Shown one piece after another: positions 2,406 through 27,409 of a stretch of 27,725 nucleotides of DNA. The position numbers were made by a program, and so were the translations under genes. The DNA is from a virus. Lineage: Duplodnaviria > Caudoviricetes. Every line of letters starts with the position of its first letter. Position 1 is the stretch's first letter. The DNA lies in IMG/VR virus record IMGVR_UViG_3300029183_000035, positions 1-27,725 of that record. One strand, 5' to 3'. The notes under the pieces are model-generated. The model did no database searches. It saw nothing but the letters and a program-made list of their open reading frames with translations, and was not told where the DNA came from.

Positions 2406-2888
2406 ATGAAGAACATTCACTCTGTTGCGTCAGTCGCCGTCGCAAAACACCTGGAAGAGCAGAAATCCGCTATCTCCCTCGCAGGTGACCCAAACTCTTG
2501 GACCTGCCATCGGGCGTTGCTGGAAGCAGACGACATCCAGAGGGTGGTTCTTTGGCAAGAATTCCACGCGGACACACGTGGAGGCAGTTGCCGCTTGCCA
2601 GACGCGATGACGGAATCTGAGGGGAAGGAACGCTTCAAGGATTTGCTGGGACGTCTCGGACGGGCGCAACTAGTTTTGCGTGAATCAGTAAAGATGGAGC
2701 CCACGGCAGTATCAGACCGCGTTGACGGCCTTCTATACTTCATCGATGGGAACCATCGACTGATTGCGAATCAGCTAGCCGGGAGAGATCTTGAGGGAGT
2801 CTTTATTTACCTGGCTGTTCGTGACGATGCGTTTGATTCGTACTCAACTCCTCCTTGGCTCCGATCACACCGCGCCAACACTCCATAA
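2406..2888 (+). CDS. ParB/Sulfiredoxin-like N-terminal domain protein
   Basis: EPTAVS...LLYFIDGNHRLIANQLAG matches the ParB/Srx 'iDGhHR..A...G' motif. Confidence 0.65.
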   Translation: MKNIHSVASVAVAKHLEEQKSAISLAGDPNSWTCHRALLEADDIQRVVLWQEFHADTRGGSCRLPDAMTESEGKERFKDLLGRLGRAQLVLRESVKMEPTAVSDRVDGLLYFIDGNHRLIANQLAGRDLEGVFIYLAVRDDAFDSYSTPPWLRSHRANTP

Positions 2889-2898
2889 ACACTCCACA
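2878..2898 (+). repeat. Left integrase arm-type repeat (P arm)
   Basis: ACACTCCATAAACACTCCACA is 20/21 identical to 3098-3118 and is itself a tandem of ACACTCCA(T/C)A. Confidence 0.75.
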
Positions 2899-2899
2899 C

Positions 2900-2928
2900 G
2901 TCCGCTACACAGCCCGATAGTCCGCTAC
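2900..2928 (+). repeat. GTCCGCTAC direct repeat at 20 bp spacing, possible accessory (Xis) binding sites
   Basis: GTCCGCTAC at 2900-2908 and 2920-2928, between the arm repeat and the att core. Confidence 0.45.
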
Positions 2929-3000
2929 TCTCGAACAACGAAAAACTGTGTTTTCTAGGCGAAACCGTAGTGGTGTGTCGGGGTGCGTAGAGGACGGTAA

Positions 3001-3046
3001 GGATTCTCAGTCCGAAGACAGGGGTTCGACTCCCCTAGGGGGTGCC
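3001..3046 (+). mobile_element. att core: 3' half of tRNA-Glu(CTC)
   Basis: GGA-TTCTCAG-TCC anticodon arm (CTC), T-arm AGGGG-TTCGACT-CCCCT, acceptor 3' strand AGGGGGT-G-CC. No D-arm or 5' acceptor strand upstream. Lies 78 bp from the integrase stop. Confidence 0.85.
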
Positions 3047-3097
3047 TCTTGCAGGGCAAGCACTTACGTCAATTTGAGCGTTGCGGAAAATCGCCTG

Positions 3098-3118
3098 ACA
3101 CTCCATAAACCCTCCACA
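3098..3118 (+). repeat. Right integrase arm-type repeat (P' arm)
   Basis: ACACTCCATAAACCCTCCACA, a direct repeat of 2878-2898, just beyond the integrase stop. Confidence 0.75.
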
Positions 3119-3123
3119 GCACT

Positions 3124-4266
3124 TCACGCTCGATTCTTAAGTGAACTCGGAATGTAGGCGTCGTAGGCGGTCTTCTGGTGCCCCTCTGCGTACTTAATGT
3201 AACGCAGCGTCGTGTTGAAGCTGGCGTGCCCCATCTGCTCCTGAAGGTCGCGGTCTGACACCCTGCCAAAGTTGTAGGTGGCGTGGGCATAGCGAAAGCT
3301 GTGGAAGCTGTATAAGTGGCATGATGGGGTGTGATCGTGTTCCTCAAGGCACGTCAGGTGAATGCCCGCCTCCTTCTGGATCCGCGCCAAATCTCGGTCC
3401 AAACTCTTGGTGGAGTGGTTCCACGCGAACACGCGAGATTCACCAAACTTGCGGACCTTGAGCAACTGTTCTAAGAAGGGCCCCGCCGCACCAATTTGGT
3501 GCCTTTGATCTTTTTTTGGTTTGTTGTCTCGATGCGGGCTAATCGCGACTCCCGCCTCCAAGTCAACGTTCTCCCACTTGAGAGCGAGCATCGCCGAACG
3601 TCTCATGCCAGTTACCCAGGCAACAGCCAGAAACGCTTTCCAGAAATCCTTGGGCTCAAACAATTGTTCTTTGGGGAACCGTGCCGCATCGCAGGACTTC
3701 ATCATCGCGTCAAAGTGCTGTTCGGTGACGAAAGGTTTGTCCTTCCCGAATCCATCCACTTCCGGCATCGGCGGAACCTGATCGAGTTGTTTCCATCGAA
3801 CAGCCACACTCAGAGCCGCCCGTATCGTACGAAGTTCTTTGCGGACGGTTTCAGCCGCCACCGTTGACCCGGGTTTCTTTCCCCGCATCAACAGCCGCTT
3901 GGCTACGTACTGGTCCAAAGAACGTGCGTCGACTCGATCAACGTGGACAGGCTTAACAATCTCGCCGAACAGTTTCAGTGCCCGATTCGATTCCGTCTGA
4001 CTGTACGACGATCGCCACTTGGGCATAATCACTTGCTTGTAGTCGTCTACGAATGACTCCCACCTGGTGTGTTCCGGCCCCGTTTTGCACAGGCCGGCAG
4101 CAAGTTCACCTTCCTTCTTCTTTCGGAATTTTTCCGCCATCGACTTGCTGCCGATTCGCTTGCACCGTTTCTTACTGTCGGGATCGTACCAACCAACGGA
4201 CCACGGGCATTTCTCCTCGCCGAGCTTCTTCTTTTGTCTGGAATCTTGAAACAACCAAGCGCGCAT
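3124..4266 (-). CDS. int: Tyrosine recombinase / phage integrase
   Basis: TGMRRSAMLALKW (catalytic R), FHSFRYAHAT (HxxR), MGHASFNTTLRY (H, Y). N-terminal arm-binding-like domain. Adjacent to the tRNA-derived att core. Confidence 0.95.
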   Translation of the reverse strand: MRAWLFQDSRQKKKLGEEKCPWSVGWYDPDSKKRCKRIGSKSMAEKFRKKKEGELAAGLCKTGPEHTRWESFVDDYKQVIMPKWRSSYSQTESNRALKLFGEIVKPVHVDRVDARSLDQYVAKRLLMRGKKPGSTVAAETVRKELRTIRAALSVAVRWKQLDQVPPMPEVDGFGKDKPFVTEQHFDAMMKSCDAARFPKEQLFEPKDFWKAFLAVAWVTGMRRSAMLALKWENVDLEAGVAISPHRDNKPKKDQRHQIGAAGPFLEQLLKVRKFGESRVFAWNHSTKSLDRDLARIQKEAGIHLTCLEEHDHTPSCHLYSFHSFRYAHATYNFGRVSDRDLQEQMGHASFNTTLRYIKYAEGHQKTAYDAYIPSSLKNRA

Positions 4267-4315: not shown

Positions 4316-4609
4316 TTACACCTGTGCTCGGTCCAGGAAACCTACAAGTTCCTCCCTGGCGTACAAAATTCGCTTTCCTACCTTCCTGCCCGTAATCTCG
4401 CCCCGTAGACGGCAATCGCGAAGAACGTGCCTCTCAATGCCCAATAGGCTCGCTGCTTCGGCCTCTGTGTACGAGAGCCTGTCTGCTGTCCTCTCACGAT
4501 TCTGTTCCAAGCGGTGCAGCACTTCGCTAACTACCACTTCCACGAGGGGCCGCAACTCTTCTGCGGTTCCGTCAAATCCCAATGGTGGCTTACTGCTGTT
4601 TCCTAACAT
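4316..4609 (-). CDS. Excisionase-like HTH (HTH_17/MerR-like) DNA-binding protein
   Basis: LSYTEAEAASLLGIERHVLRDCRLRGEITGRKVGKRILYAREEL; directly upstream of int. Confidence 0.85.
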   Translation of the reverse strand: MLGNSSKPPLGFDGTAEELRPLVEVVVSEVLHRLEQNRERTADRLSYTEAEAASLLGIERHVLRDCRLRGEITGRKVGKRILYAREELVGFLDRAQV

Positions 4610-6154
4610 CTATTCGGCCCCCAGTTCCAAATCAGACAGAGCATCTCTCACAGTCCAGCGATACGTCTGCAGTTCATCTTGCTCAGCCTCTTGCAATTCG
4701 AGTTCTCTATTGAACGCGTCCATGTCGAGAACAGCCTGAATCGTGTCTTCAACTATTTCCTGGAGCGTCTCTGGTTCCATTGATTCCAATTCCCAGCAGC
4801 GGTCGCCATATTTCTCCTGAAACTGGGGAAACCGAGAAGACTCTTCTTTGGCAAATTGCCCCTCGTGGAGGTCAAGTGTCTGAACTTGCTCGTGGGTTAG
4901 CGTTGCTTTGATTAGCTCTAGCTTTTCTTCGCTGAGTCCGAAGTCATCTCGCAGGCTGATTCCAAATGAGTTTGGGATGTCTTCGCCTTCTGGATCGAAA
5001 TCCGAAACAACAATGATGACCAACTTTTCCCGACCACTAGCCCTGAACCTTTCGAGCATGGAATAACGCGGTGGGAGAGATGAATACCCTCGTCCGCTGG
5101 TCATGGGGATGGTGTACTTGGCAGCTATTCCACGAAGATCGGAAGCAATTGTGTTTTTCTCAACTAGCAATTCAACGTGATTTGGTTGGCTTTGGAGCAA
5201 ATCGCGATAGTAGCCAGCAAACAGACCTTTCACTTCCTTTGCAACGAAGGTGCCGACACTTCTGTGGGTGTCCCATTGCACAACAGGTCGTGTCTCGTCC
5301 GATATGCACTCCATGGGTAACGTTCCGTCAATACGCAATCGGGTTACCATGTCTGTCACATCGTCGTAACAGGCCTGGCTATTTCCGAAACGCGTCCTCC
5401 GACTGTCATTGCGGAGCAGCCCGGCGATATTGAGTAGGCGATAGAAAACTTTCCTATCGGAAAGGGGCCAGTGCCTTTCGTTGACGAACACGATTTCCGT
5501 GATCGCCCGTGCAAGCGAGCGTTTCTGTACGATCGCAGAACGCTTCTTTTCCCCGACGAGCTTTATGGCCTCAACGCCAGCCAACTTAGACGATCGATTG
5601 CGATACTTGCGGAGAGATTGCCACGCATGGTCTCCCATCAACGCAACCTCTTCCAATGTTTCTTCTGCGGTAGTCTTTACCCGCTGCCTGTTGTAGCTGG
5701 CGAGGGCGCGAACAAAAGCGTCAACGTCCCCTGTACGATCAATGTCACCTCGAATCTGTACAGGCACCTTGGCCACCCCAGCCTGGATGGCGGCGGCGTG
5801 TCGACGGTGACCGCTGAGAATGTATCCATCCGCCGAAACCACAAGGGGGACCAGTATCCCGTTTTGACGAACATCTCTGACCAGACCCCTGAACGCCAGA
5901 TCGTTTGAACGAACCGGATCGTATAACTTGTCGTTCTCTGGAGAGGGGGAAATCGCAGAAGTACACACCTCATACAGGCATGCTAGTGAATCGTGTGTAC
6001 TTTTGACTCGGGGAAGCAGATTTCCTTCCTTTTCTAGACGTTTTCGGTGTCTGCTCACCGTTCCGTTAGAAACGCCTAATTCTTTGGCAATTTGACGATC
6101 ACTACGACTGGCATCTAGCATCAGTGCTTCTGCAACGCGGACTCCAACTTTCAT
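4610..6154 (-). CDS. HTH + ParB/Srx + TopoVI-A/Spo11-like TOPRIM fusion protein
   Basis: SDRQIAKELGVSNGTVSRHR (HTH); GILVPLVV..ILSGHRRHAAA (ParB); PLSDRKVFYRL (winged-helix, candidate Tyr); LLVEKNT..SGRGYSS..VSDFDPEG (TOPRIM E and DxD). Confidence 0.8.
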   Translation of the reverse strand: MKVGVRVAEALMLDASRSDRQIAKELGVSNGTVSRHRKRLEKEGNLLPRVKSTHDSLACLYEVCTSAISPSPENDKLYDPVRSNDLAFRGLVRDVRQNGILVPLVVSADGYILSGHRRHAAAIQAGVAKVPVQIRGDIDRTGDVDAFVRALASYNRQRVKTTAEETLEEVALMGDHAWQSLRKYRNRSSKLAGVEAIKLVGEKKRSAIVQKRSLARAITEIVFVNERHWPLSDRKVFYRLLNIAGLLRNDSRRTRFGNSQACYDDVTDMVTRLRIDGTLPMECISDETRPVVQWDTHRSVGTFVAKEVKGLFAGYYRDLLQSQPNHVELLVEKNTIASDLRGIAAKYTIPMTSGRGYSSLPPRYSMLERFRASGREKLVIIVVSDFDPEGEDIPNSFGISLRDDFGLSEEKLELIKATLTHEQVQTLDLHEGQFAKEESSRFPQFQEKYGDRCWELESMEPETLQEIVEDTIQAVLDMDAFNRELELQEAEQDELQTYRWTVRDALSDLELGAE

Positions 6155-6683: not shown

Positions 6684-7055
6684 TCAGCCGTCAAGATACG
6701 ATTCAAAAACCGACGCCACTGCTGACTTGACGTCTTCCAGTTGTTCGTCAGACAGTTTTTCGAACTGCTCAATCTGGTCGACACTACCCCTCACGCCGAC
6801 CGTAAATGCGACTAGCACGTCTGCGCCGACCAGCACGCAAGACGCCTTCATTCCATTGCGCTGGGCAGCGAGCGACTTGCGGTGACCGCGAACGTACGAT
6901 TTTGCCATGTCCAGCGACACCGACAGGCCCACCGTTTTTGCCAGGTCCCCGTTTCTCCTCCGAACTTCGACGTCATAGACACGTCGACCGTCAACGACAC
7001 CTGCGAGACGCACCGTGACGCCTTCCTGATTCCGCTTGGCAATTTTCTTCAGCAT
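6684..7055 (-). CDS. Hypothetical protein
   Basis: 123-aa ORF with a GGAGGGA RBS, co-oriented behind 7088-7399. Confidence 0.75.
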   Translation of the reverse strand: MLKKIAKRNQEGVTVRLAGVVDGRRVYDVEVRRRNGDLAKTVGLSVSLDMAKSYVRGHRKSLAAQRNGMKASCVLVGADVLVAFTVGVRGSVDQIEQFEKLSDEQLEDVKSAVASVFESYLDG

Positions 7056-7087: not shown

Positions 7088-7399
7088 TCATCCTGTACGT
7101 GATTCCAATTGTTGCGCGAACTTGCTTCTAGCCTTTCTTCCTCGTGTCTGCTCGGGGAGTAGCATCCCTTCCCGGATCAATTCCTCTTCTGTTACCGACC
7201 CGTTATTGATCGCAGCCTTTGACGCCGCGCGACAGGTTGCGCATAGTCCCCGCGCAGCAGCTTCACGGTCGCAATCTTGGATGATGCACCGACCAGCCTT
7301 GACCTTCGGTGAGATGCGATCCTGCACCTTTCTTGGTACACGAGCATTCATTACCGCGTACTCAACCTGCACTCTCTTTCCGATGAACTTTTCTGGCAT
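7088..7399 (-). CDS. Zinc-finger protein (CxxxxC-x9-CxxC), putative regulator, paralog A
   Basis: CIIQDC..RGLCATC..VTEEEL..LLPE..RGRK; strong GAGGAGGA RBS. Confidence 0.85.
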   Translation of the reverse strand: MPEKFIGKRVQVEYAVMNARVPRKVQDRISPKVKAGRCIIQDCDREAAARGLCATCRAASKAAINNGSVTEEELIREGMLLPEQTRGRKARSKFAQQLESRTG

Positions 7400-7589
7400 T
7401 GTCTTTCCTCCTCAGCACTAGTCATCTGAACTTCAGATAGTAAGTAACAAATATTATTTATCAACTATTTATTAAGTATTTGTTATTGCTTTTTCACGTA
7501 ACGTGAGCGTAACTTGTTGTCGTTTTTGGAGTTCGGTAATATGTGTTGGTGCAAAATATTTTTTGAAACCCTTTTCTTCGCAGGTGGTC
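7400..7589. promoter_or_regulatory. AT-rich divergent control region with palindromes
   Basis: 8/50 GC at 7441-7490. Inverted repeats: ATCTGAA-C-TTCAGAT (7424-7438), TAACAAATA/TATTTGTTA (7445-7485), TCACGT-A-ACGTGA (7494-7506). Candidate promoters: TTGATA-16-TACTAT (minus, 7464-7437) and TTGTTG-17-TAATAT (plus, 7514-7542). Confidence 0.7.
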
Positions 7590-7910
7590 GTGGACAAAAA
7601 ACGCGTTCAAAAAGCTGTTCGGTCTCTCCAGAGTGCGTTGAGAGATCTGGAAGCCCTGTTGAATGAAGAGGAGGACTCCAGTGGCGAAAAATGCTTGATG
7701 GAGAACTGCCGGAACGTGGCGAAGTTCCGGGGCCTGTGTCCGACCCACTACACCAAGGCAAGGAAGGAGATTCGCTCTGGAGCAGTGACTGAAGAACAAT
7801 TGATGGACTCGGGGCTTATGCTCCCCGAGCACAAGCCCGGAAGGCCACGACAGCCAACGTTTGAGCAAATGGTGTCAAAAAAGAAAGCCAAGAAGAGGAG
7901 CAAAAAATGA
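7590..7910 (+). CDS. Zinc-finger protein (CxxxxC-x9-CxxH) with N-terminal coiled coil and AT-hook-like PGRPR, paralog B
   Basis: CLMENC..RGLCPTH..VTEEQL..MLPE..PGRPR and a basic tail. Start uncertain (GTG 7584 or 7590; the ORF is open from 7503). Confidence 0.8.
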   Translation: MDKKRVQKAVRSLQSALRDLEALLNEEEDSSGEKCLMENCRNVAKFRGLCPTHYTKARKEIRSGAVTEEQLMDSGLMLPEHKPGRPRQPTFEQMVSKKKAKKRSKK

Positions 7911-8695
7911 AATCGCGATTGAGTGCTATTGCTCTGATACTGCCGTTGCTCCTAGGTGCCGAGAAACGTCGCTGGACGGACTACGAAGAGAAGAATTCCG
8001 TTGTCGGTACTCTAAAGTCTGTTGTGGTGCGCATCGAAAAACCGGACGGAGAAGTTATCTCGGTTGAAGCGGACAGGCTAAGCAAAAAAGACAGAGCTTA
8101 CATTGCCAAACAGATCGATCCGGAGGAACCGGATCCAACGCCGCCGGAGGTGCCCAAGATATCTCCAGACCAAGCTGTGATTAACCTCGCGCGAGCGGGA
8201 ATCTTGGTGAAGGCAGACGCAAAACATGTAAATATCTCTTGCGAGAATGGCAGGTTCAAAGGCTATGACCCATCGAACGTCGATGCCCTGAAATCACTTC
8301 ACTCTCTTCCGAATCTTAAAACCATGATTGTGATCGGCGCATTGGAGGACAAACATCTAGTTCCGCTCGCAGGGTTGCCAACCTTGGAACATATCGAGGT
8401 TTTCGTTGACAACATCCGCAAGCCAACGGGGCTTGATCCATTGGCAAAAATTCCCTCGCTTCAGTATCTAGAGATTCAATCCGAAATTACGAACGAGCAG
8501 CTTGAACCTGTCGGACGAATCTCAAGCCTAAAGGGGCTAAAACTAGGAAGCACGAAAATCACCGATCGCGGCCTCGTCCACTTGCGAGAGTTAAAGAACC
8601 TGGAATCGCTCATCCTGGAGGACAGCAAGGTCACCAAAGCCGGGTTGAAGGATCTCTACGAGCACCTACCTAAGTGCGTTGGGTCTCTCCGATGA
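7907..8695 (+). CDS. Exported SHD1-domain + leucine-rich-repeat protein
   Basis: Signal peptide MKSRLSAIALILPLLLGA; SHD1-like RRWTD..VRIEKPDG..DRLSKKDRAYI; Pro-rich linker; LRRs such as LKGLKLGSTKITDRGLVHLRELKNLESLILEDSKVT. ATGA overlap with the upstream gene. Confidence 0.85.
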   Translation: MKSRLSAIALILPLLLGAEKRRWTDYEEKNSVVGTLKSVVVRIEKPDGEVISVEADRLSKKDRAYIAKQIDPEEPDPTPPEVPKISPDQAVINLARAGILVKADAKHVNISCENGRFKGYDPSNVDALKSLHSLPNLKTMIVIGALEDKHLVPLAGLPTLEHIEVFVDNIRKPTGLDPLAKIPSLQYLEIQSEITNEQLEPVGRISSLKGLKLGSTKITDRGLVHLRELKNLESLILEDSKVTKAGLKDLYEHLPKCVGSLR

Positions 8696-17492: not shown

Positions 17493-18809
17493 CTATCTAA
17501 AAGTGACTTTCCAATTCATGTCGCGTTTCACCGACTTCAGGAAAAACGCACCTGTACCCGAGATGAAGAAACCGCGTAGCGTGTTCTCGAACTGACGAAT
17601 GGAACGCGCAACAAATCTGTTCCCTTTCGTGCCTGGGTGCCGAACTGTGCCCCGGAATGGACGACCATTGATATTCAACGGCTTGCCTTGCTTGGGGCGA
17701 ATCGCGTGGGCTCTCGTCGGGCGTTCGACCAAGTGCATCGGAACAGCACCACGCGTCGAACCACTGATTCCGCCACCTGTACCAACACCGCCTGTCGGGG
17801 CACCTTGCCGGCCGACATTCGCTTGACTGATTTGAACTACGAATCGTCCCCGTCCAACCGGAACCAACCGGGATCGCAAGCTACGTGCAAATCGGCCTGT
17901 CCTCTTGGGCGCGTTTCGACGCAGGGTGTGTAGAAGCAACTTCTCTGCTTGCTTCAGCGTGATGGCGAGACGCCTTTGCAGTTCCTCGCGAATGCTCCGG
18001 ATGCTTTCGGAAGACACCGTTGAAACAGAGGCACTAATCGAAATCGTTGCTTCTGTGGGAACCAGGTAGAACCCGTTCGTACGCCCAGGATTCGTACGTG
18101 CCAAGTTGGTTCGACCCTGATGGGGACTGTAACCACGGGGCCGCGTTTCGCGCGGGCTGGCTTTCCTCGGCGGGCGTCCGATTCTCGATTTGGTGGGAAC
18201 GTGCGTTTTGACGTTCGGCTTAGAGGGCTTGCGAGGCGGTTTAATGGGCGAACGCTTGCGAGTCCCAGGGAACGTTGCACCGCCACCTGCTCGCGTCTTG
18301 GCGCTAGGTCCTCGCGGGCGAGACGTGTGAGAAGGCTTGCGAGGTGGCTTGGGCTTCGCACCGTGCGTGAGCCCGTGGGCATTGGCACGGGTTTTTGCAC
18401 CAGCGAGACGCCGGGGTGGCTTCTTGCTGGTGCGCGTGTTGACCTTTGCCTTGGGCTTGGCACCGCTATTCGCCTTGGTCTGTGATGATGTCCCCGCACG
18501 CGTCTTAGGTGCCTTGCGTTTCTCTTTCGTTGGGACCGTGTAGAGACTGCCCACGGGCGCGTAGCGTCCACCAATGCCACGCCCCGAGGCATCCTTCACC
18601 CCACGAATGAACTTTGCCTTGCTCGTGCTGCGAACGTTGTACTTGGAGCGATCGGCAACAGGAATGTTTTTAGGCGGCTTGATAGGATTGCGGATAGGCC
18701 GACTAACACGCACCGGGGCAGGTGGCGGGCCCAGCGGATTCGTCGGCGGATCAACCGGAATATCAAAGGCGAACTCAATGCCGCCATCGCTATCGGATTT
18801 GCCTGCCAT
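17493..18809 (-). CDS. HK97 gp10-like neck protein with long K/R/P-rich N-terminal extension
   Basis: C-terminal RNAPKRTGRFARSL..HLVE..HPGTKGNRFV motif and position after the head-closure gene. Confidence 0.7.
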   Translation of the reverse strand: MAGKSDSDGGIEFAFDIPVDPPTNPLGPPPAPVRVSRPIRNPIKPPKNIPVADRSKYNVRSTSKAKFIRGVKDASGRGIGGRYAPVGSLYTVPTKEKRKAPKTRAGTSSQTKANSGAKPKAKVNTRTSKKPPRRLAGAKTRANAHGLTHGAKPKPPRKPSHTSRPRGPSAKTRAGGGATFPGTRKRSPIKPPRKPSKPNVKTHVPTKSRIGRPPRKASPRETRPRGYSPHQGRTNLARTNPGRTNGFYLVPTEATISISASVSTVSSESIRSIREELQRRLAITLKQAEKLLLHTLRRNAPKRTGRFARSLRSRLVPVGRGRFVVQISQANVGRQGAPTGGVGTGGGISGSTRGAVPMHLVERPTRAHAIRPKQGKPLNINGRPFRGTVRHPGTKGNRFVARSIRQFENTLRGFFISGTGAFFLKSVKRDMNWKVTFR

Positions 18810-23640: not shown

Positions 23641-23829
23641 TTAGCCAGGCTGTTGTTGTCCGTCTCGTACGATCGCCCAAATGGAGCCCACGGCAATTGC
23701 CAGCCCGCAGAACAGATTTCCCAACCGCCAATCGTACCCGCAAAGGGCGATAAAGCATTGAAGGAATCCCGCTGCCAGTAGGCATTCTCGCAATCGAGAA
23801 ATACTATTGCTTCGCGTTTCGTTCGCCAT
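23641..23829 (-). CDS. Small two-TM membrane protein before the portal
   Basis: Two hydrophobic segments; small membrane genes are common at this position in HK97-like head modules. Confidence 0.6.
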   Translation of the reverse strand: MANETRSNSISRLRECLLAAGFLQCFIALCGYDWRLGNLFCGLAIAVGSIWAIVRDGQQQPG

Positions 23830-24070
23830 CTTTGCTTGCTCGGGTTAGTGCTTCGTACACCTTGCGACCGTCGAAGGCAGAGCGGTTTGTGTTTCCTGCG
23901 AGTTCCTCGATGGAACGCAACGCCTCGGTTGCCGGCTGTACAAGCTTCAGTTCCTCTTGGTGAATTTCTTCTAGTGCCAAGAGGGCCTTGTAATTTCTCG
24001 ACAGTGCCTTGAACAGCGCGCTCACCGCTGCGTCGGTCGCCTTGATCTCATTTTGCGTTGGTAGTGGCAT
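23804..24070 (-). CDS. Small alpha-helical hypothetical protein
   Basis: Tightly packed in the operon; amphipathic helical sequence. Confidence 0.7.
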   Translation of the reverse strand: MPLPTQNEIKATDAAVSALFKALSRNYKALLALEEIHQEELKLVQPATEALRSIEELAGNTNRSAFDGRKVYEALTRASKDGERNAKQ

Positions 24071-24074
24071 GGTC

Positions 24075-24638
24075 TCACGCGAGGGAATTCGCGCTCCTGA
24101 TTACGTTTTTCGCTCGTGTCACGAAATCGCGACGTGCTTTCAATTCAGCCTCAAACTTCCGAGTGTCGACTTGGAGTTGCCGCGTTAGGGCTTTCGCTGA
24201 GTTGACCAATGCCGCTGGCGTCATTGAGGCGCGGGCGTGTCGCTCAGGCGGGGAAGCGTGACGGATGCTTGCTTCCATTCGAGGCGGTGTAAGCTGTAAG
24301 AGCTTGGAAAGGCGATTGACCGCGAGTGTCAATTCCACGGGGATGTCCGGCAGTTGAACGTAACGCGTCTGTATACCGTTCGCCATGTCGGCGTTGCGAC
24401 GATACTCTTCGATGTTTTCCTCGAGAAACGTTTCACGAATCGTCTCACTGGCTTCTTCCAGGCTTTCCGCACGAAACGACCGCCCTGTGTGGCGCCTAAC
24501 TTCCGCCGCCAGCTCACGGGACAGCCTCTTTTGTTTCGCGACCATTTTGAGGTAGTTTTCGACGCTTCGCCGGTAGTGCTGCAACTCTTGAGAGTAGTTG
24601 TTTATCCACTTCTCGGCGTCTTTTAATGCTGCGCTCAT
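24075..24638 (-). CDS. Coiled-coil hypothetical protein
   Basis: ATGA overlap with the upstream gene; charged helical sequence. Confidence 0.75.
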   Translation of the reverse strand: MSAALKDAEKWINNYSQELQHYRRSVENYLKMVAKQKRLSRELAAEVRRHTGRSFRAESLEEASETIRETFLEENIEEYRRNADMANGIQTRYVQLPDIPVELTLAVNRLSKLLQLTPPRMEASIRHASPPERHARASMTPAALVNSAKALTRQLQVDTRKFEAELKARRDFVTRAKNVIRSANSLA

Positions 24639-25024
24639 ACCGTTCTCTTCGATCTTTTCAGGAGTAGTTCAGCGCGATGATTGTCATCGGCCATTTTTCG
24701 AATCTTTGTCAGCAACTTTCCCCACTTGTCGCTCAACGCGCCCCACTGGAGTCGCACGTCGTCACGCAAATCAAGTGCAGCCTGGTCGTTTCTGGGCGGA
24801 CCCGCACGATAAGCGACCGGCGGCGCGTGTGACCGAACAGCACTGCCTATCAACGCCTCGAGCCGCAACAGGTTGTCCATAAAGTCACTCGGCGGCGGGT
24901 TCCTGTTGATTTTTAGATCGGCGTCTCTCTCGAAACTTTCCATCTCTGCAAGATGCTCGCGATATTCGCGGATCATCTTAAGGTCAAACTCATGGAGCCC
25001 TTCGTCACTAAACGGATTTGGCAT
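24635..25024 (-). CDS. Helical hypothetical protein
   Basis: TGATG overlap with the terminase stop; GAGG RBS upstream. Confidence 0.75.
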   Translation of the reverse strand: MPNPFSDEGLHEFDLKMIREYREHLAEMESFERDADLKINRNPPPSDFMDNLLRLEALIGSAVRSHAPPVAYRAGPPRNDQAALDLRDDVRLQWGALSDKWGKLLTKIRKMADDNHRAELLLKRSKRTV

Positions 25025-26676
25025 CACCACACCTCTACTGGGTTCTCTTCGTAGTAATCGAGTTTTACTTGTCCCGCTTCGGACATCGCCGCTGCCAACG
25101 CCATGACGCCGCCCACCATGCCGTCAATCTTGCGAATGTCGTTCTGTTTTGGCTTCACGAGCATCTTGCGATTGTTGTCATCCTGCTTCACCTTGACGTG
25201 ACCCGCTTGCCAATTGAGTACCCGGTTACCGTTGTGGTGCAATTTTTCATCGACCACCAACCGTTCGTAGTCGCTCACGGGTCCCGAAAAGTTATTCATG
25301 CTCTGCGAGAACTTGAAACGGTCGATTCCCAATTCAAGTTCAAAGTATTGGGTGATATCCTCGGCAAACGTCGGATCGTAGTAACACGCGACAATGCGGA
25401 ATGTCTCGTTCAGTTCGGACACCTTCTCTTTGATGTACGACTGCTGAACGACTTGTCCGGGAATCAGAGTTAGCTCGCCTGATGCTTCCCACTCGAAGAA
25501 ACTTGCTTTGTGTTCGTTATCGCGGGCCGTTTGCTCCGGAAGCCAGAAGTAGGGCAGTTGAAGGTAATGACCTTCGTTCTCGGGATCGCGGAACACCAGC
25601 ACGACGGCAGACATGTCGTAAGTCTTGCTGAGATCCAGCCCCATCCAGCACTGATGGCCGGCTAAGTCCTTTTCCGTGAAGCGTCGTTCGCAGGCCTTCC
25701 ATTTCGTCGGGTCCAACCACGGGTTTTCGGATGTCGCCCAGATGTTTAGACGTCGCCGCTTGAAGCCGGTTAGATCGGCCAAACCCCGCTTCTTGGCCCG
25801 TTCGTAACTCTGCAAAAACTCTTCTTCGTTGATGGTGTGACCCCAGGAAGGGTTGGCCATCTCGCCGTACTTGACCGGGTCTTTATCCAAGTCCGCGTTG
25901 CTCAAGTCCTGTGGCGCCTCATACGACTCGAAGTAGAAATACGGGTCGATAATATCCCCACGCTCAACCGCCTTGCCGTACTCGTACTGACTGCGCCCGT
26001 AGCTCTCGGGATCGCTGCCGGCTGTCGAAAACTCAATTTGCATCGGCTCAGGTCGGGAGGCCCCCGCGTCTTCAATGATGCGGGCCAGGCGAGCGGAAAC
26101 AACGTGCGTCTCGTCAATCAACACGCACCCATTGATTCCTTCCTGCCCTGCTTCGTTGTCCGCTGACAGGATGGAATACGTCGACATGGAGGTATCGTGG
26201 GTGATTTGATGCGTTGTCTTGTTGATGGTGCATTCCCGGCGCAGCTCGGGGCTTTGCCGTGTCGCCATCTCTGCGTGCCGGTGGGAAATCAACGCTTGCT
26301 TCCCGTCATGGGCGCCACTGAACACTTTTTGGCCCGGTTCGCCGTCAGCGCTGAAAAGGTACAGCCCGAACCACGCCAGCGTGGGGCTCTTGGTATTCTT
26401 CTTGGGCCACCAAATAGAAGCTTTGCGAAAGCGTCTTACCCATCGGTCGTAATGCTTTGACCATCGCTCCCACCCGAAGAGTCGAGTGACCAAATCAATC
26501 TGGTGTGGAAGGGGATCGAGATATTCCCCCGAGCGTTCCCCTTCGTACAGCACAAAGCAGTTGCGGCCAAAGTTCAGCACCACCTCGGCACGCTCTAGAT
26601 TCATGCGCATCCCCTGCGCGGCCGCGTGTTCATCCGCAGCGTTGCGAATCCATTGTTGGGTGCTATCGATGGTCAT
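25024..26676 (-). CDS. terL: Terminase large subunit
   Basis: LPHQ Q-motif, PKKNTKS Walker A variant, VLIDETH Walker B, STAG, ANPSWG, GLDLS, YYDP, RKIDGMV nuclease motifs. Confidence 0.95.
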   Translation of the reverse strand: MTIDSTQQWIRNAADEHAAAQGMRMNLERAEVVLNFGRNCFVLYEGERSGEYLDPLPHQIDLVTRLFGWERWSKHYDRWVRRFRKASIWWPKKNTKSPTLAWFGLYLFSADGEPGQKVFSGAHDGKQALISHRHAEMATRQSPELRRECTINKTTHQITHDTSMSTYSILSADNEAGQEGINGCVLIDETHVVSARLARIIEDAGASRPEPMQIEFSTAGSDPESYGRSQYEYGKAVERGDIIDPYFYFESYEAPQDLSNADLDKDPVKYGEMANPSWGHTINEEEFLQSYERAKKRGLADLTGFKRRRLNIWATSENPWLDPTKWKACERRFTEKDLAGHQCWMGLDLSKTYDMSAVVLVFRDPENEGHYLQLPYFWLPEQTARDNEHKASFFEWEASGELTLIPGQVVQQSYIKEKVSELNETFRIVACYYDPTFAEDITQYFELELGIDRFKFSQSMNNFSGPVSDYERLVVDEKLHHNGNRVLNWQAGHVKVKQDDNNRKMLVKPKQNDIRKIDGMVGGVMALAAAMSEAGQVKLDYYEENPVEVW

Positions 26677-26927
26677 GGAAGTTCAATCTGTGGTGCTTCG
26701 CCTCTTAACTTCTCAAATTCAGCAGTCTTCCGTTTGTCGAGTTCGCGCAAGCGACGGACGACCTCGCGAGGAACACTCTTGGCCTTCTCAATCTCGGCAA
26801 TCAACTCGTCCACTTCCTTCAAGTCGCGTTCGACCTGGTTGGTCTCTACGATGATTTCTCGCGAGAGCTTGGCCGTTCTTTGCATGAGAGCAAGGATGAT
26901 TTTTCGCAGTGAATTAAGGTCCGCCAT
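26673..26927 (-). CDS. Small coiled-coil protein
   Basis: Abuts the upstream stop, ATGA overlap with terL; heptad pattern. Confidence 0.75.
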   Translation of the reverse strand: MADLNSLRKIILALMQRTAKLSREIIVETNQVERDLKEVDELIAEIEKAKSVPREVVRRLRELDKRKTAEFEKLRGEAPQIELP

Positions 26928-27149
26928 CTACCTTCCCCATTGAGCAAAGCGACTCAGGGAACCAACTTCCTTCTGCAGCTTGTCGATTCGAGTCGCCAGC
27001 TTCTCGAAGACTCGCCGCTTGTTGCCGGTTTCCGCCGCAATGAGACGTTCGGTTTGATTCACTTCCTCGATGATGACCAGGCCCAATTCGGCTTTCTCGA
27101 TGAGCTTACTCACGAACAACTGATACTCTCGAATTCTCGGATCGTCCAT
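26928..27149 (-). CDS. Small coiled-coil protein
   Basis: TGATG overlap with the upstream gene; helical. Confidence 0.75.
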   Translation of the reverse strand: MDDPRIREYQLFVSKLIEKAELGLVIIEEVNQTERLIAAETGNKRRVFEKLATRIDKLQKEVGSLSRFAQWGR

Positions 27150-27409
27150 CAGAGTTTGCCTGCCTTGGTGAGTGCGACATTCATTGCAACGAGCTTGTCC
27201 CAGAGTACGCTTGCCTCCGACTCGGCATTCGTAATGGCAGCAACATATTCACTTAGCTTGCGGGCAATGTCTGCTTGCCTCTCCCAAAGCTTGTCTCTCA
27301 GCCGCATCGCCCGGTCTGCCTTGCCGTGAAGCTGAATCACTTCGCTTTCAAGCTTTTCCAACTCGCGAGCAATGTTCTTGATGTCTTGTTGCGTTAAGGA
27401 TTCCGGCAT
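27149..27409 (-). CDS. Small coiled-coil protein
   Basis: Starts 2 nt after the terS stop; long heptad helix. Confidence 0.75.
   Translation of the reverse strand: MPESLTQQDIKNIARELEKLESEVIQLHGKADRAMRLRDKLWERQADIARKLSEYVAAITNAESEASVLWDKLVAMNVALTKAGKL

Follow-up and report, generated by a model that had tools for sequence, protein, structure and literature searches.

A head-to-head pair of paralogous, predicted zinc-finger proteins as a candidate CI/Cro-like switch in a phage genome fragment

Background

Phage immunity switches are annotated by finding HTH or S24 repressors. In prokaryotes, MucR/Ros regulates AT-rich DNA through a zinc finger and has a part for oligomerisation at its N-terminus. 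CI and Cro are described as antagonistic homodimeric HTH factors (PMC6649833), and CgpS as a prophage-encoded silencer (PMC5137423).

Here we describe a locus that resembles these systems in part. It lies in a phage record that spans 27,725 nt and is 43% complete according to CheckV (the window, meaning the whole stretch of DNA analysed), and a distantly related phage record, G001 (26,802 nt, 26% complete), also has both types of its proteins head to head. As in lambdoid CI/Cro, divergent small regulators share a homologous domain, and one gene is tied to integrase or lysogeny cargo while the other heads early lytic genes (in G001, and partly in the window). Back-to-back promoters may be present as well, to judge from consensus matches (two divergent matches in G001, one in the window). 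Unlike CI and Cro, the pair is without HTH or S24 and has a predicted zinc finger, and the candidate operators are AT cores of 7-10 nt instead of long palindromes. Lsr2/CgpS and H-NS are resembled by the proteins in a predicted N-terminal helical segment, basic charge and an AT-rich neighbourhood, and possibly in a GR or RGR loop between predicted helices, which may be akin to the Q/RGR-type AT-hook loop; they differ in the absence of a sequence match (0/70 members, Pfam, E<=0.05), in the inserted, predicted zinc finger, and in the arrangement as divergent paralogues at a putative immunity locus. No ROS_MUCR match was found in Pfam for the family, and its ligand spacing and predicted fold differ from the classical Cys2His2 finger of MucR/Ros. 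An earlier note on this DNA had compared the pair with MucR, Lsr2 and H-NS, and membership in these groups was not borne out by any family or fold match.

Results and Discussion

The divergent pair and its neighbourhood

The left paralogue, which we place in the Cro slot, is encoded at 7088..7399 on the minus strand (103 aa), and the right paralogue, placed in the CI slot, at 7590..7910 on the plus strand (106 aa). The paralogy proposed in the earlier note was confirmed: both ORFs exist as described, and their products are identical at 23 of 60 positions in a gapless alignment (BLASTP, E 3e-15) with a local alignment score of 126, which none of 5000 shuffles reached (shuffle maximum 63). The left protein is predicted to comprise an N-terminal strand-like segment and a short helix, a C4 zinc finger, two helices, an RGR loop and a C-terminal helix, and the right protein a long N-terminal amphipathic helix (residues 3-31), a C3H zinc finger, two helices, a PGRP loop and a basic C-terminal helix. 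In both AlphaFold models (pLDDT 92 for the right protein and 84 for the left), the finger is followed by a helix of 13 residues and a short one, then by the loop that carries the GR motif and finally by a C-terminal helix; both proteins are basic (+9, +10). In the monomer model of the left protein, the N-terminus is an extended segment followed by a helix at 23-29 (pLDDT 64-75), which may resemble ribbon-helix-helix repressors such as Arc and Mnt, whose intertwined dimer has a beta-ribbon. The AT-hook-like motif had been regarded as an addition of the right protein; PGRP is indeed present there, but the left protein has a GR loop too (RGRK), and RGR and PGRP both sit in the loop between predicted helices.

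The stop codon of the right gene overlaps the start codon of a cargo gene (ATGA, 7907-7910), in agreement with the translational coupling suggested previously; the cargo gene (7907..8695, plus strand, 262 aa) encodes a protein with a hydrophobic N-terminus, a weak SHD1 match and leucine-rich repeats. Directly downstream of the left gene is a gene for a 123-aa protein (6684..7055, minus strand) with no family match. Further along the minus strand are the genes for an HTH, ParB and topoisomerase-like protein (4610..6154; its topoisomerase-VI-like part corresponds to phrog_6247), which is directly upstream of xis and int, for an excisionase-like HTH_17 protein (4316..4609, match above the cut-off), and for a tyrosine integrase (3124..4266, profile matches). 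The claim that the left gene heads an operon leading to xis and int held only for the orientation, which is the same; a terminator-like hairpin (6222-6203) and about 530 nt without a convincing gene lie between.

In Pfam, NCBIfam and PHROG, the only HTH match of either protein was a single PHROG row at chance level (E 0.086). S24 (PF00717) was matched in neither of the two records, the window and G001, at E<=1, and HTH_3 in the window gave a sub-cut-off match only, inside the ParB-like gene. The absence of an HTH or S24 repressor, as previously noted, holds for the window and not for the phage, because the record is 43% complete.

The spacer

The spacer (7400..7589, 190 nt) is a putative divergent control region rich in AT. 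Its GC content is 34%, and the lowest-GC 70-mer of the window (21%) lies inside it, so that its description as AT-rich was correct. A sigma70-like promoter match (7437..7464, minus strand; a consensus match only) faces the Cro-slot gene and has the word AAATATT between its hexamers, at 7449..7455. This word, a candidate operator core, is found at just two places of the 27.7-kb window, 7449 and 7554/7555, both in the spacer; the second site is the palindrome AAAATATTTT (7553..7562) upstream of the CI-slot gene, and G001 has the same 10-mer near its own CI-slot gene. AAATATT occurs at three places in G001, two of them in the spacer and one inside the CI-slot gene, and in none of four single-copy phage spacers. 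In 1 of 3000 shuffles, each of the two spacers received two copies of the same 7-mer that did not overlap; this test was post hoc, and the test of shared words was weaker at other lengths (k=6, P = 0.033; longest shared word of 10 nt, P = 0.054). AAATATT could also be a plain AT-rich promoter element instead of an operator.

In G001, both sigma70-like matches found in 1.6 kb are inside the spacer and diverge (2 against 0.7+/-0.8 expected), and AAATATT lies between the hexamers of each, forming a 15-nt inverted repeat (87%). The -10 match on the CI side ends 7 nt before an in-frame ATG, which suggests that the CI-slot transcript of G001 may be leaderless; the lambda cI transcript is leaderless. 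Around the window pair, sigma70-like matches were not enriched (5 in 4.8 kb against 2.6+/-1.4 expected), and the scan found none facing the CI-slot gene. Long palindromic operators were not significant in either of the two spacers (P = 0.11, 0.24); the long spacer palindromes ATCTGAACTTCAGAT and TCACGTAACGTGA were rejected as operators, as they did not exceed shuffles (P = 0.11).

Fold and family of the shared domain

Neither window protein has a match in Pfam or NCBIfam. A family profile, built from three sequences over the shared 67 residues and searched against 1.84 billion clusters, matched 186 clusters at E<=1e-10 and 3233 at E<=1e-3, many of the weaker ones covering the finger alone. The family has no Pfam or NCBIfam name and is mostly viral, and the near-full domain was present in 104 of the 152 proteins compared (the best 150 and the window's own two). 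Its motif is C-x2/4-C-x6/7-RG[LV]C-x2-[CH], a helix, G-x2-TE-x2-L-x3-G-x2-LP, and then often GR, which was found in 41 of 69 tails (RGR or PGRP in 15 of 69). Three cysteines are invariant (70/70 rows), and the fourth ligand among 78 rows is C in 69 and H in 8. In the Atlas, the nearest clusters of the left protein are viral hypothetical proteins (0.91-0.94), and Myxococcota 'vegetative protein' clusters are further Atlas leads at 0.79-0.81.

These 'vegetative protein' clusters, Zf_WRKY19 (PF24906) and phrog_5351, the N-terminal knuckles of phage HNH endonucleases (E 0.0006), share the finger pattern C-x2/4-C-x6/7-RG[LV]C-x2-[CH] with the family; unlike the full domain, their matches cover only about 20-30 residues. 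PF24906 was matched by 14 of 70 family members at E<=0.05 and by neither window protein at E<=1; the relative P0040 scored 20.3 bits, below the curated cut-off of 27. The extension (helix-G-TE-L-GL-LP-GR) and the two N-terminal types were covered by no library searched. The core profile found no match among PDB sequences, with one chance-level ParD match, and in annotated phages and plasmids a single 27-residue match. Scans of genome contigs for relatives, an integrase search in viral contigs and another core alignment found none. Loci L001 and L002 were rejected as relatives, being chance matches with no domain match. In other elements the full domain is repeated in tandem, two to four times in one protein, in some cases with a fusion to HTH-like repeats (L005:6989-7855; P0005-P0008, P0027, P0031).

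In the models, the domain is predicted to be a treble-clef-like zinc finger with two helices and a GR loop, and not an HTH. Among 48,161 chains, the right protein had no fold match at Z>=5, and the best domain-level matches were A20-type zinc fingers (3oj3, 3vux, 2l00; Z only 3.2-3.4). The likeness is in the finger and the helix, which superpose with an rmsd of 1.0-1.7 over 31-33 residues (13-19% identity); A20 fingers are eukaryotic ubiquitin binders.

Two N-terminal types and their recurrence

Of the family proteins compared, only P0003, P0040 and P0078 share the N-terminus of the left protein; for all six pairs of these N-termini, none of 2000 shuffles reached the score. A helical N-terminus like that of the right protein recurs in P0118, P0029 and one G001 protein with weaker mutual likeness: for four of six pairs no more than 7 of 2000 shuffles attained the score, and two were at chance level. 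The fourth ligand is Cys in the left window protein and His in the right one, as had been observed. A functional split into C4 and C3H is not supported, since His is found in three of the four right-type proteins and the coiled-coil protein of G001 has Cys (C4), so that the ligand does not define the types.

In G001, 6 nt lie between the end of the coiled-coil gene and the integrase, and P0040, the left-type orthologue, heads a series of genes for HTH_17-like, AAA-like, exonuclease VIII, ParB/O-like initiator, DnaC-like loader and RusA proteins (52 of the 118 listed ORFs were compared with PHROGs). Six-frame searches for HTH_3 and S24 and the comparison with PHROGs revealed no other repressor candidate from int to the replication genes, and the single sub-cut-off HTH_3 match of this record falls within an HNH gene at a distance of about 4.5 kb. 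The G001 pair occupies the cI/cro slot, with the coiled-coil type in the CI slot and the other type in the Cro slot. The roles guessed in the earlier note for the two window genes are consistent with this arrangement, in which the coiled-coil type is next to int and the other type heads the early lytic operon.

P0003 and P0029 are the closest relatives of the left protein (68% core identity) and of the right protein (58%), respectively. Each was located on one NCBI/Logan contig, 66,881 bp long in both cases; this is probably the same contig, and the two are probably a third pair. Among nine other loci with the domain, most of them scanned for 6-7 kb on each side only, one is paired (G001), seven are single-copy (L003, L006, L013-L017) and one encodes a four-repeat protein (L005). 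The expected recurrence of divergent pairs without cI is thus supported by G001 and probably by the third pair, although most loci hold the domain alone. Since eight of the nine are unpaired, the domain does other jobs too.

In a tree of 78 rows and 62 columns, which is weak, the left gene grouped with P0003 (99/90), the right gene with P0029 (98/86), and the two G001 domains with each other (93/92); the supports in a tree of 20 of the rows were 88/91, 91/82 and 85/93. This weak tree hints that the domains of one phage may be kept matched, which a common operator would require.

In L013 and L014, the domain is found once, in the second of the early genes, while the cI slot is taken by a helical protein that is unrelated and not an HTH. 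These helical proteins (L013:6272-6550 and L014:6248-6610, minus strand; 92-120 aa) are related to each other (0/2000 shuffles), have no Pfam match and are placed between the integrase and a DUF1580-like gene; no HTH_3 match was found in the two fragments. They are possibly a second non-HTH repressor family. A relationship between them and the CI-type N-termini was not supported (hhalign probability 2%).

The record and its probable host

The minus strand of the record carries genes for an HK97-type capsid, protease, portal, terminases and tail. The portal, large terminase and small terminase genes are interrupted by seven short helical ORFs that have no family (23641-25030, 26673-27409), a 438-aa, very basic, proline-rich ORF lies in the neck region between the head closure and major tail genes (17493-18809), and a 469-aa ORF without a family match (866-2275), possibly a replication protein, points towards the att-like site. 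A planctomycete host is likely, given that the cargo matches SHD1 weakly and that related loci match DUF1580 below the cut-off.

Just past the integrase, 21-nt direct repeats (95% alike) surround a stretch like the 3' half of a tRNA (2878..3118). This region may be attP; the tRNA likeness was read by eye, and neither ARAGORN nor Rfam found a whole tRNA. Given the likeness to attP, an excised form may have been the source of the record. The pair is inside a single contig with zero differences in both of two sequencing runs, which may be the source sample. The contigs of both runs leave 2838-3037 uncovered, the same adapter-like loose ends occur in run contigs at 2238, 2837 and 3036, the right end of the window carries that motif, and the depth over 2243-2837 is about nine times higher than elsewhere. 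Given these ends and this depth, the likely source of the record is amplified DNA, and the record's end is probably artificial.

Interpretation of the pair

On the basis of the paralogy, the divergent layout, the two N-terminal types and the place of the G001 pair between integrase and replication genes, we consider it fairly probable that the pair is a CI/Cro-like lysis-lysogeny switch on a non-HTH fold, with the right gene CI-like and the left gene Cro-like. Both proteins would bind AAATATT-centred sites overlapping two divergent promoters, and the shared domain would read the DNA by a recognition helix and a minor-groove GR loop. The coiled-coil type, co-expressed with lysogeny genes (the integrase in G001, the exported cargo in the window), would oligomerise through its N-terminal helix, repress the lytic promoter and maintain lysogeny, and the other type, made first from the lytic promoter, would shut off the repressor promoter and commit the phage to lysis. 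Lacking an S24 domain, such a switch would have to be induced by an antirepressor or a host protease, not by RecA-driven self-cleavage. Several observations speak against this reading. The Cro-slot gene of the window points to ParB, xis and int, and no replication operon follows it; the part of the genome that the record lacks probably holds a second divergent region. Among solved folds the nearest, at low Z, are A20 fingers, which bind ubiquitin and not DNA. Each of the two records with a pair is incomplete (43% and 26%), and the CI-type N-termini are only weakly alike.

The same proteins might instead form a silencer and counter-silencer, in which the coiled-coil protein coats AT-rich DNA without strict specificity, like Lsr2/CgpS, and the other paralogue displaces it. 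The N-terminal helix and the GR loop between two helices do resemble the layout described for CgpS (PMC5137423), the spacer is the AT minimum, and GR is frequent in the family tails (41/69). We nevertheless regard this as unlikely: Pfam gave no Lsr2, H-NS or MucR family match, and the element has 50-58% GC outside the spacer region, so there is little to silence. In addition, the known counter-silencers have given up DNA binding and retained the domain for oligomerisation (PMC5137423), whereas here the putative DNA-binding part is common to both proteins and the N-termini differ.

That the pair controls only integration, excision and cargo, with the master repressor in the missing 57% of the genome, appears improbable to us. 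This explanation weighs most for the window, which is 43% complete, since its Cro-slot gene faces ParB, xis and int, and the genes at both ends of the record point away from the missing part; in G001, by contrast, the stretch from int to the replication genes is fully visible and has no other repressor candidate (HTH_3, S24, PHROG). We give still less credence to a protein-binding early phage factor, duplicated by chance, for which the divergent layout would be incidental. Single copies are the commonest form (7/9 loci), the nearest folds are A20-type protein-binding fingers, and tandem-repeat forms exist, all as such a factor would have it, but the two N-terminal types are kept with their orientation and role-slot across distant phages, and the spacer motif is shared.

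Conclusions

Returning to the CI/Cro-like switch, we tentatively envisage a temperate-phage lineage, probably of Planctomycetota, with a bistable switch in which two paralogous zinc-finger proteins would act on short AT-rich operators, the DNA-binding domains being matched within a phage by duplication or conversion, and induction proceeding without RecA-dependent self-cleavage; this full picture is possible rather than probable. Our search of paper listings and the beginnings of abstracts turned up no description of a zinc-finger CI/Cro pair. If the CI/Cro-like reading is true, the logic of CI and Cro has been reinvented on another fold, integrase-bearing phages seemingly without a repressor would be explained, and a family of at least 186 protein clusters would receive a name. 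The putative regulatory unit would be compact (0.8 kb) and could perhaps be turned into a genetic tool in a phylum that has few.
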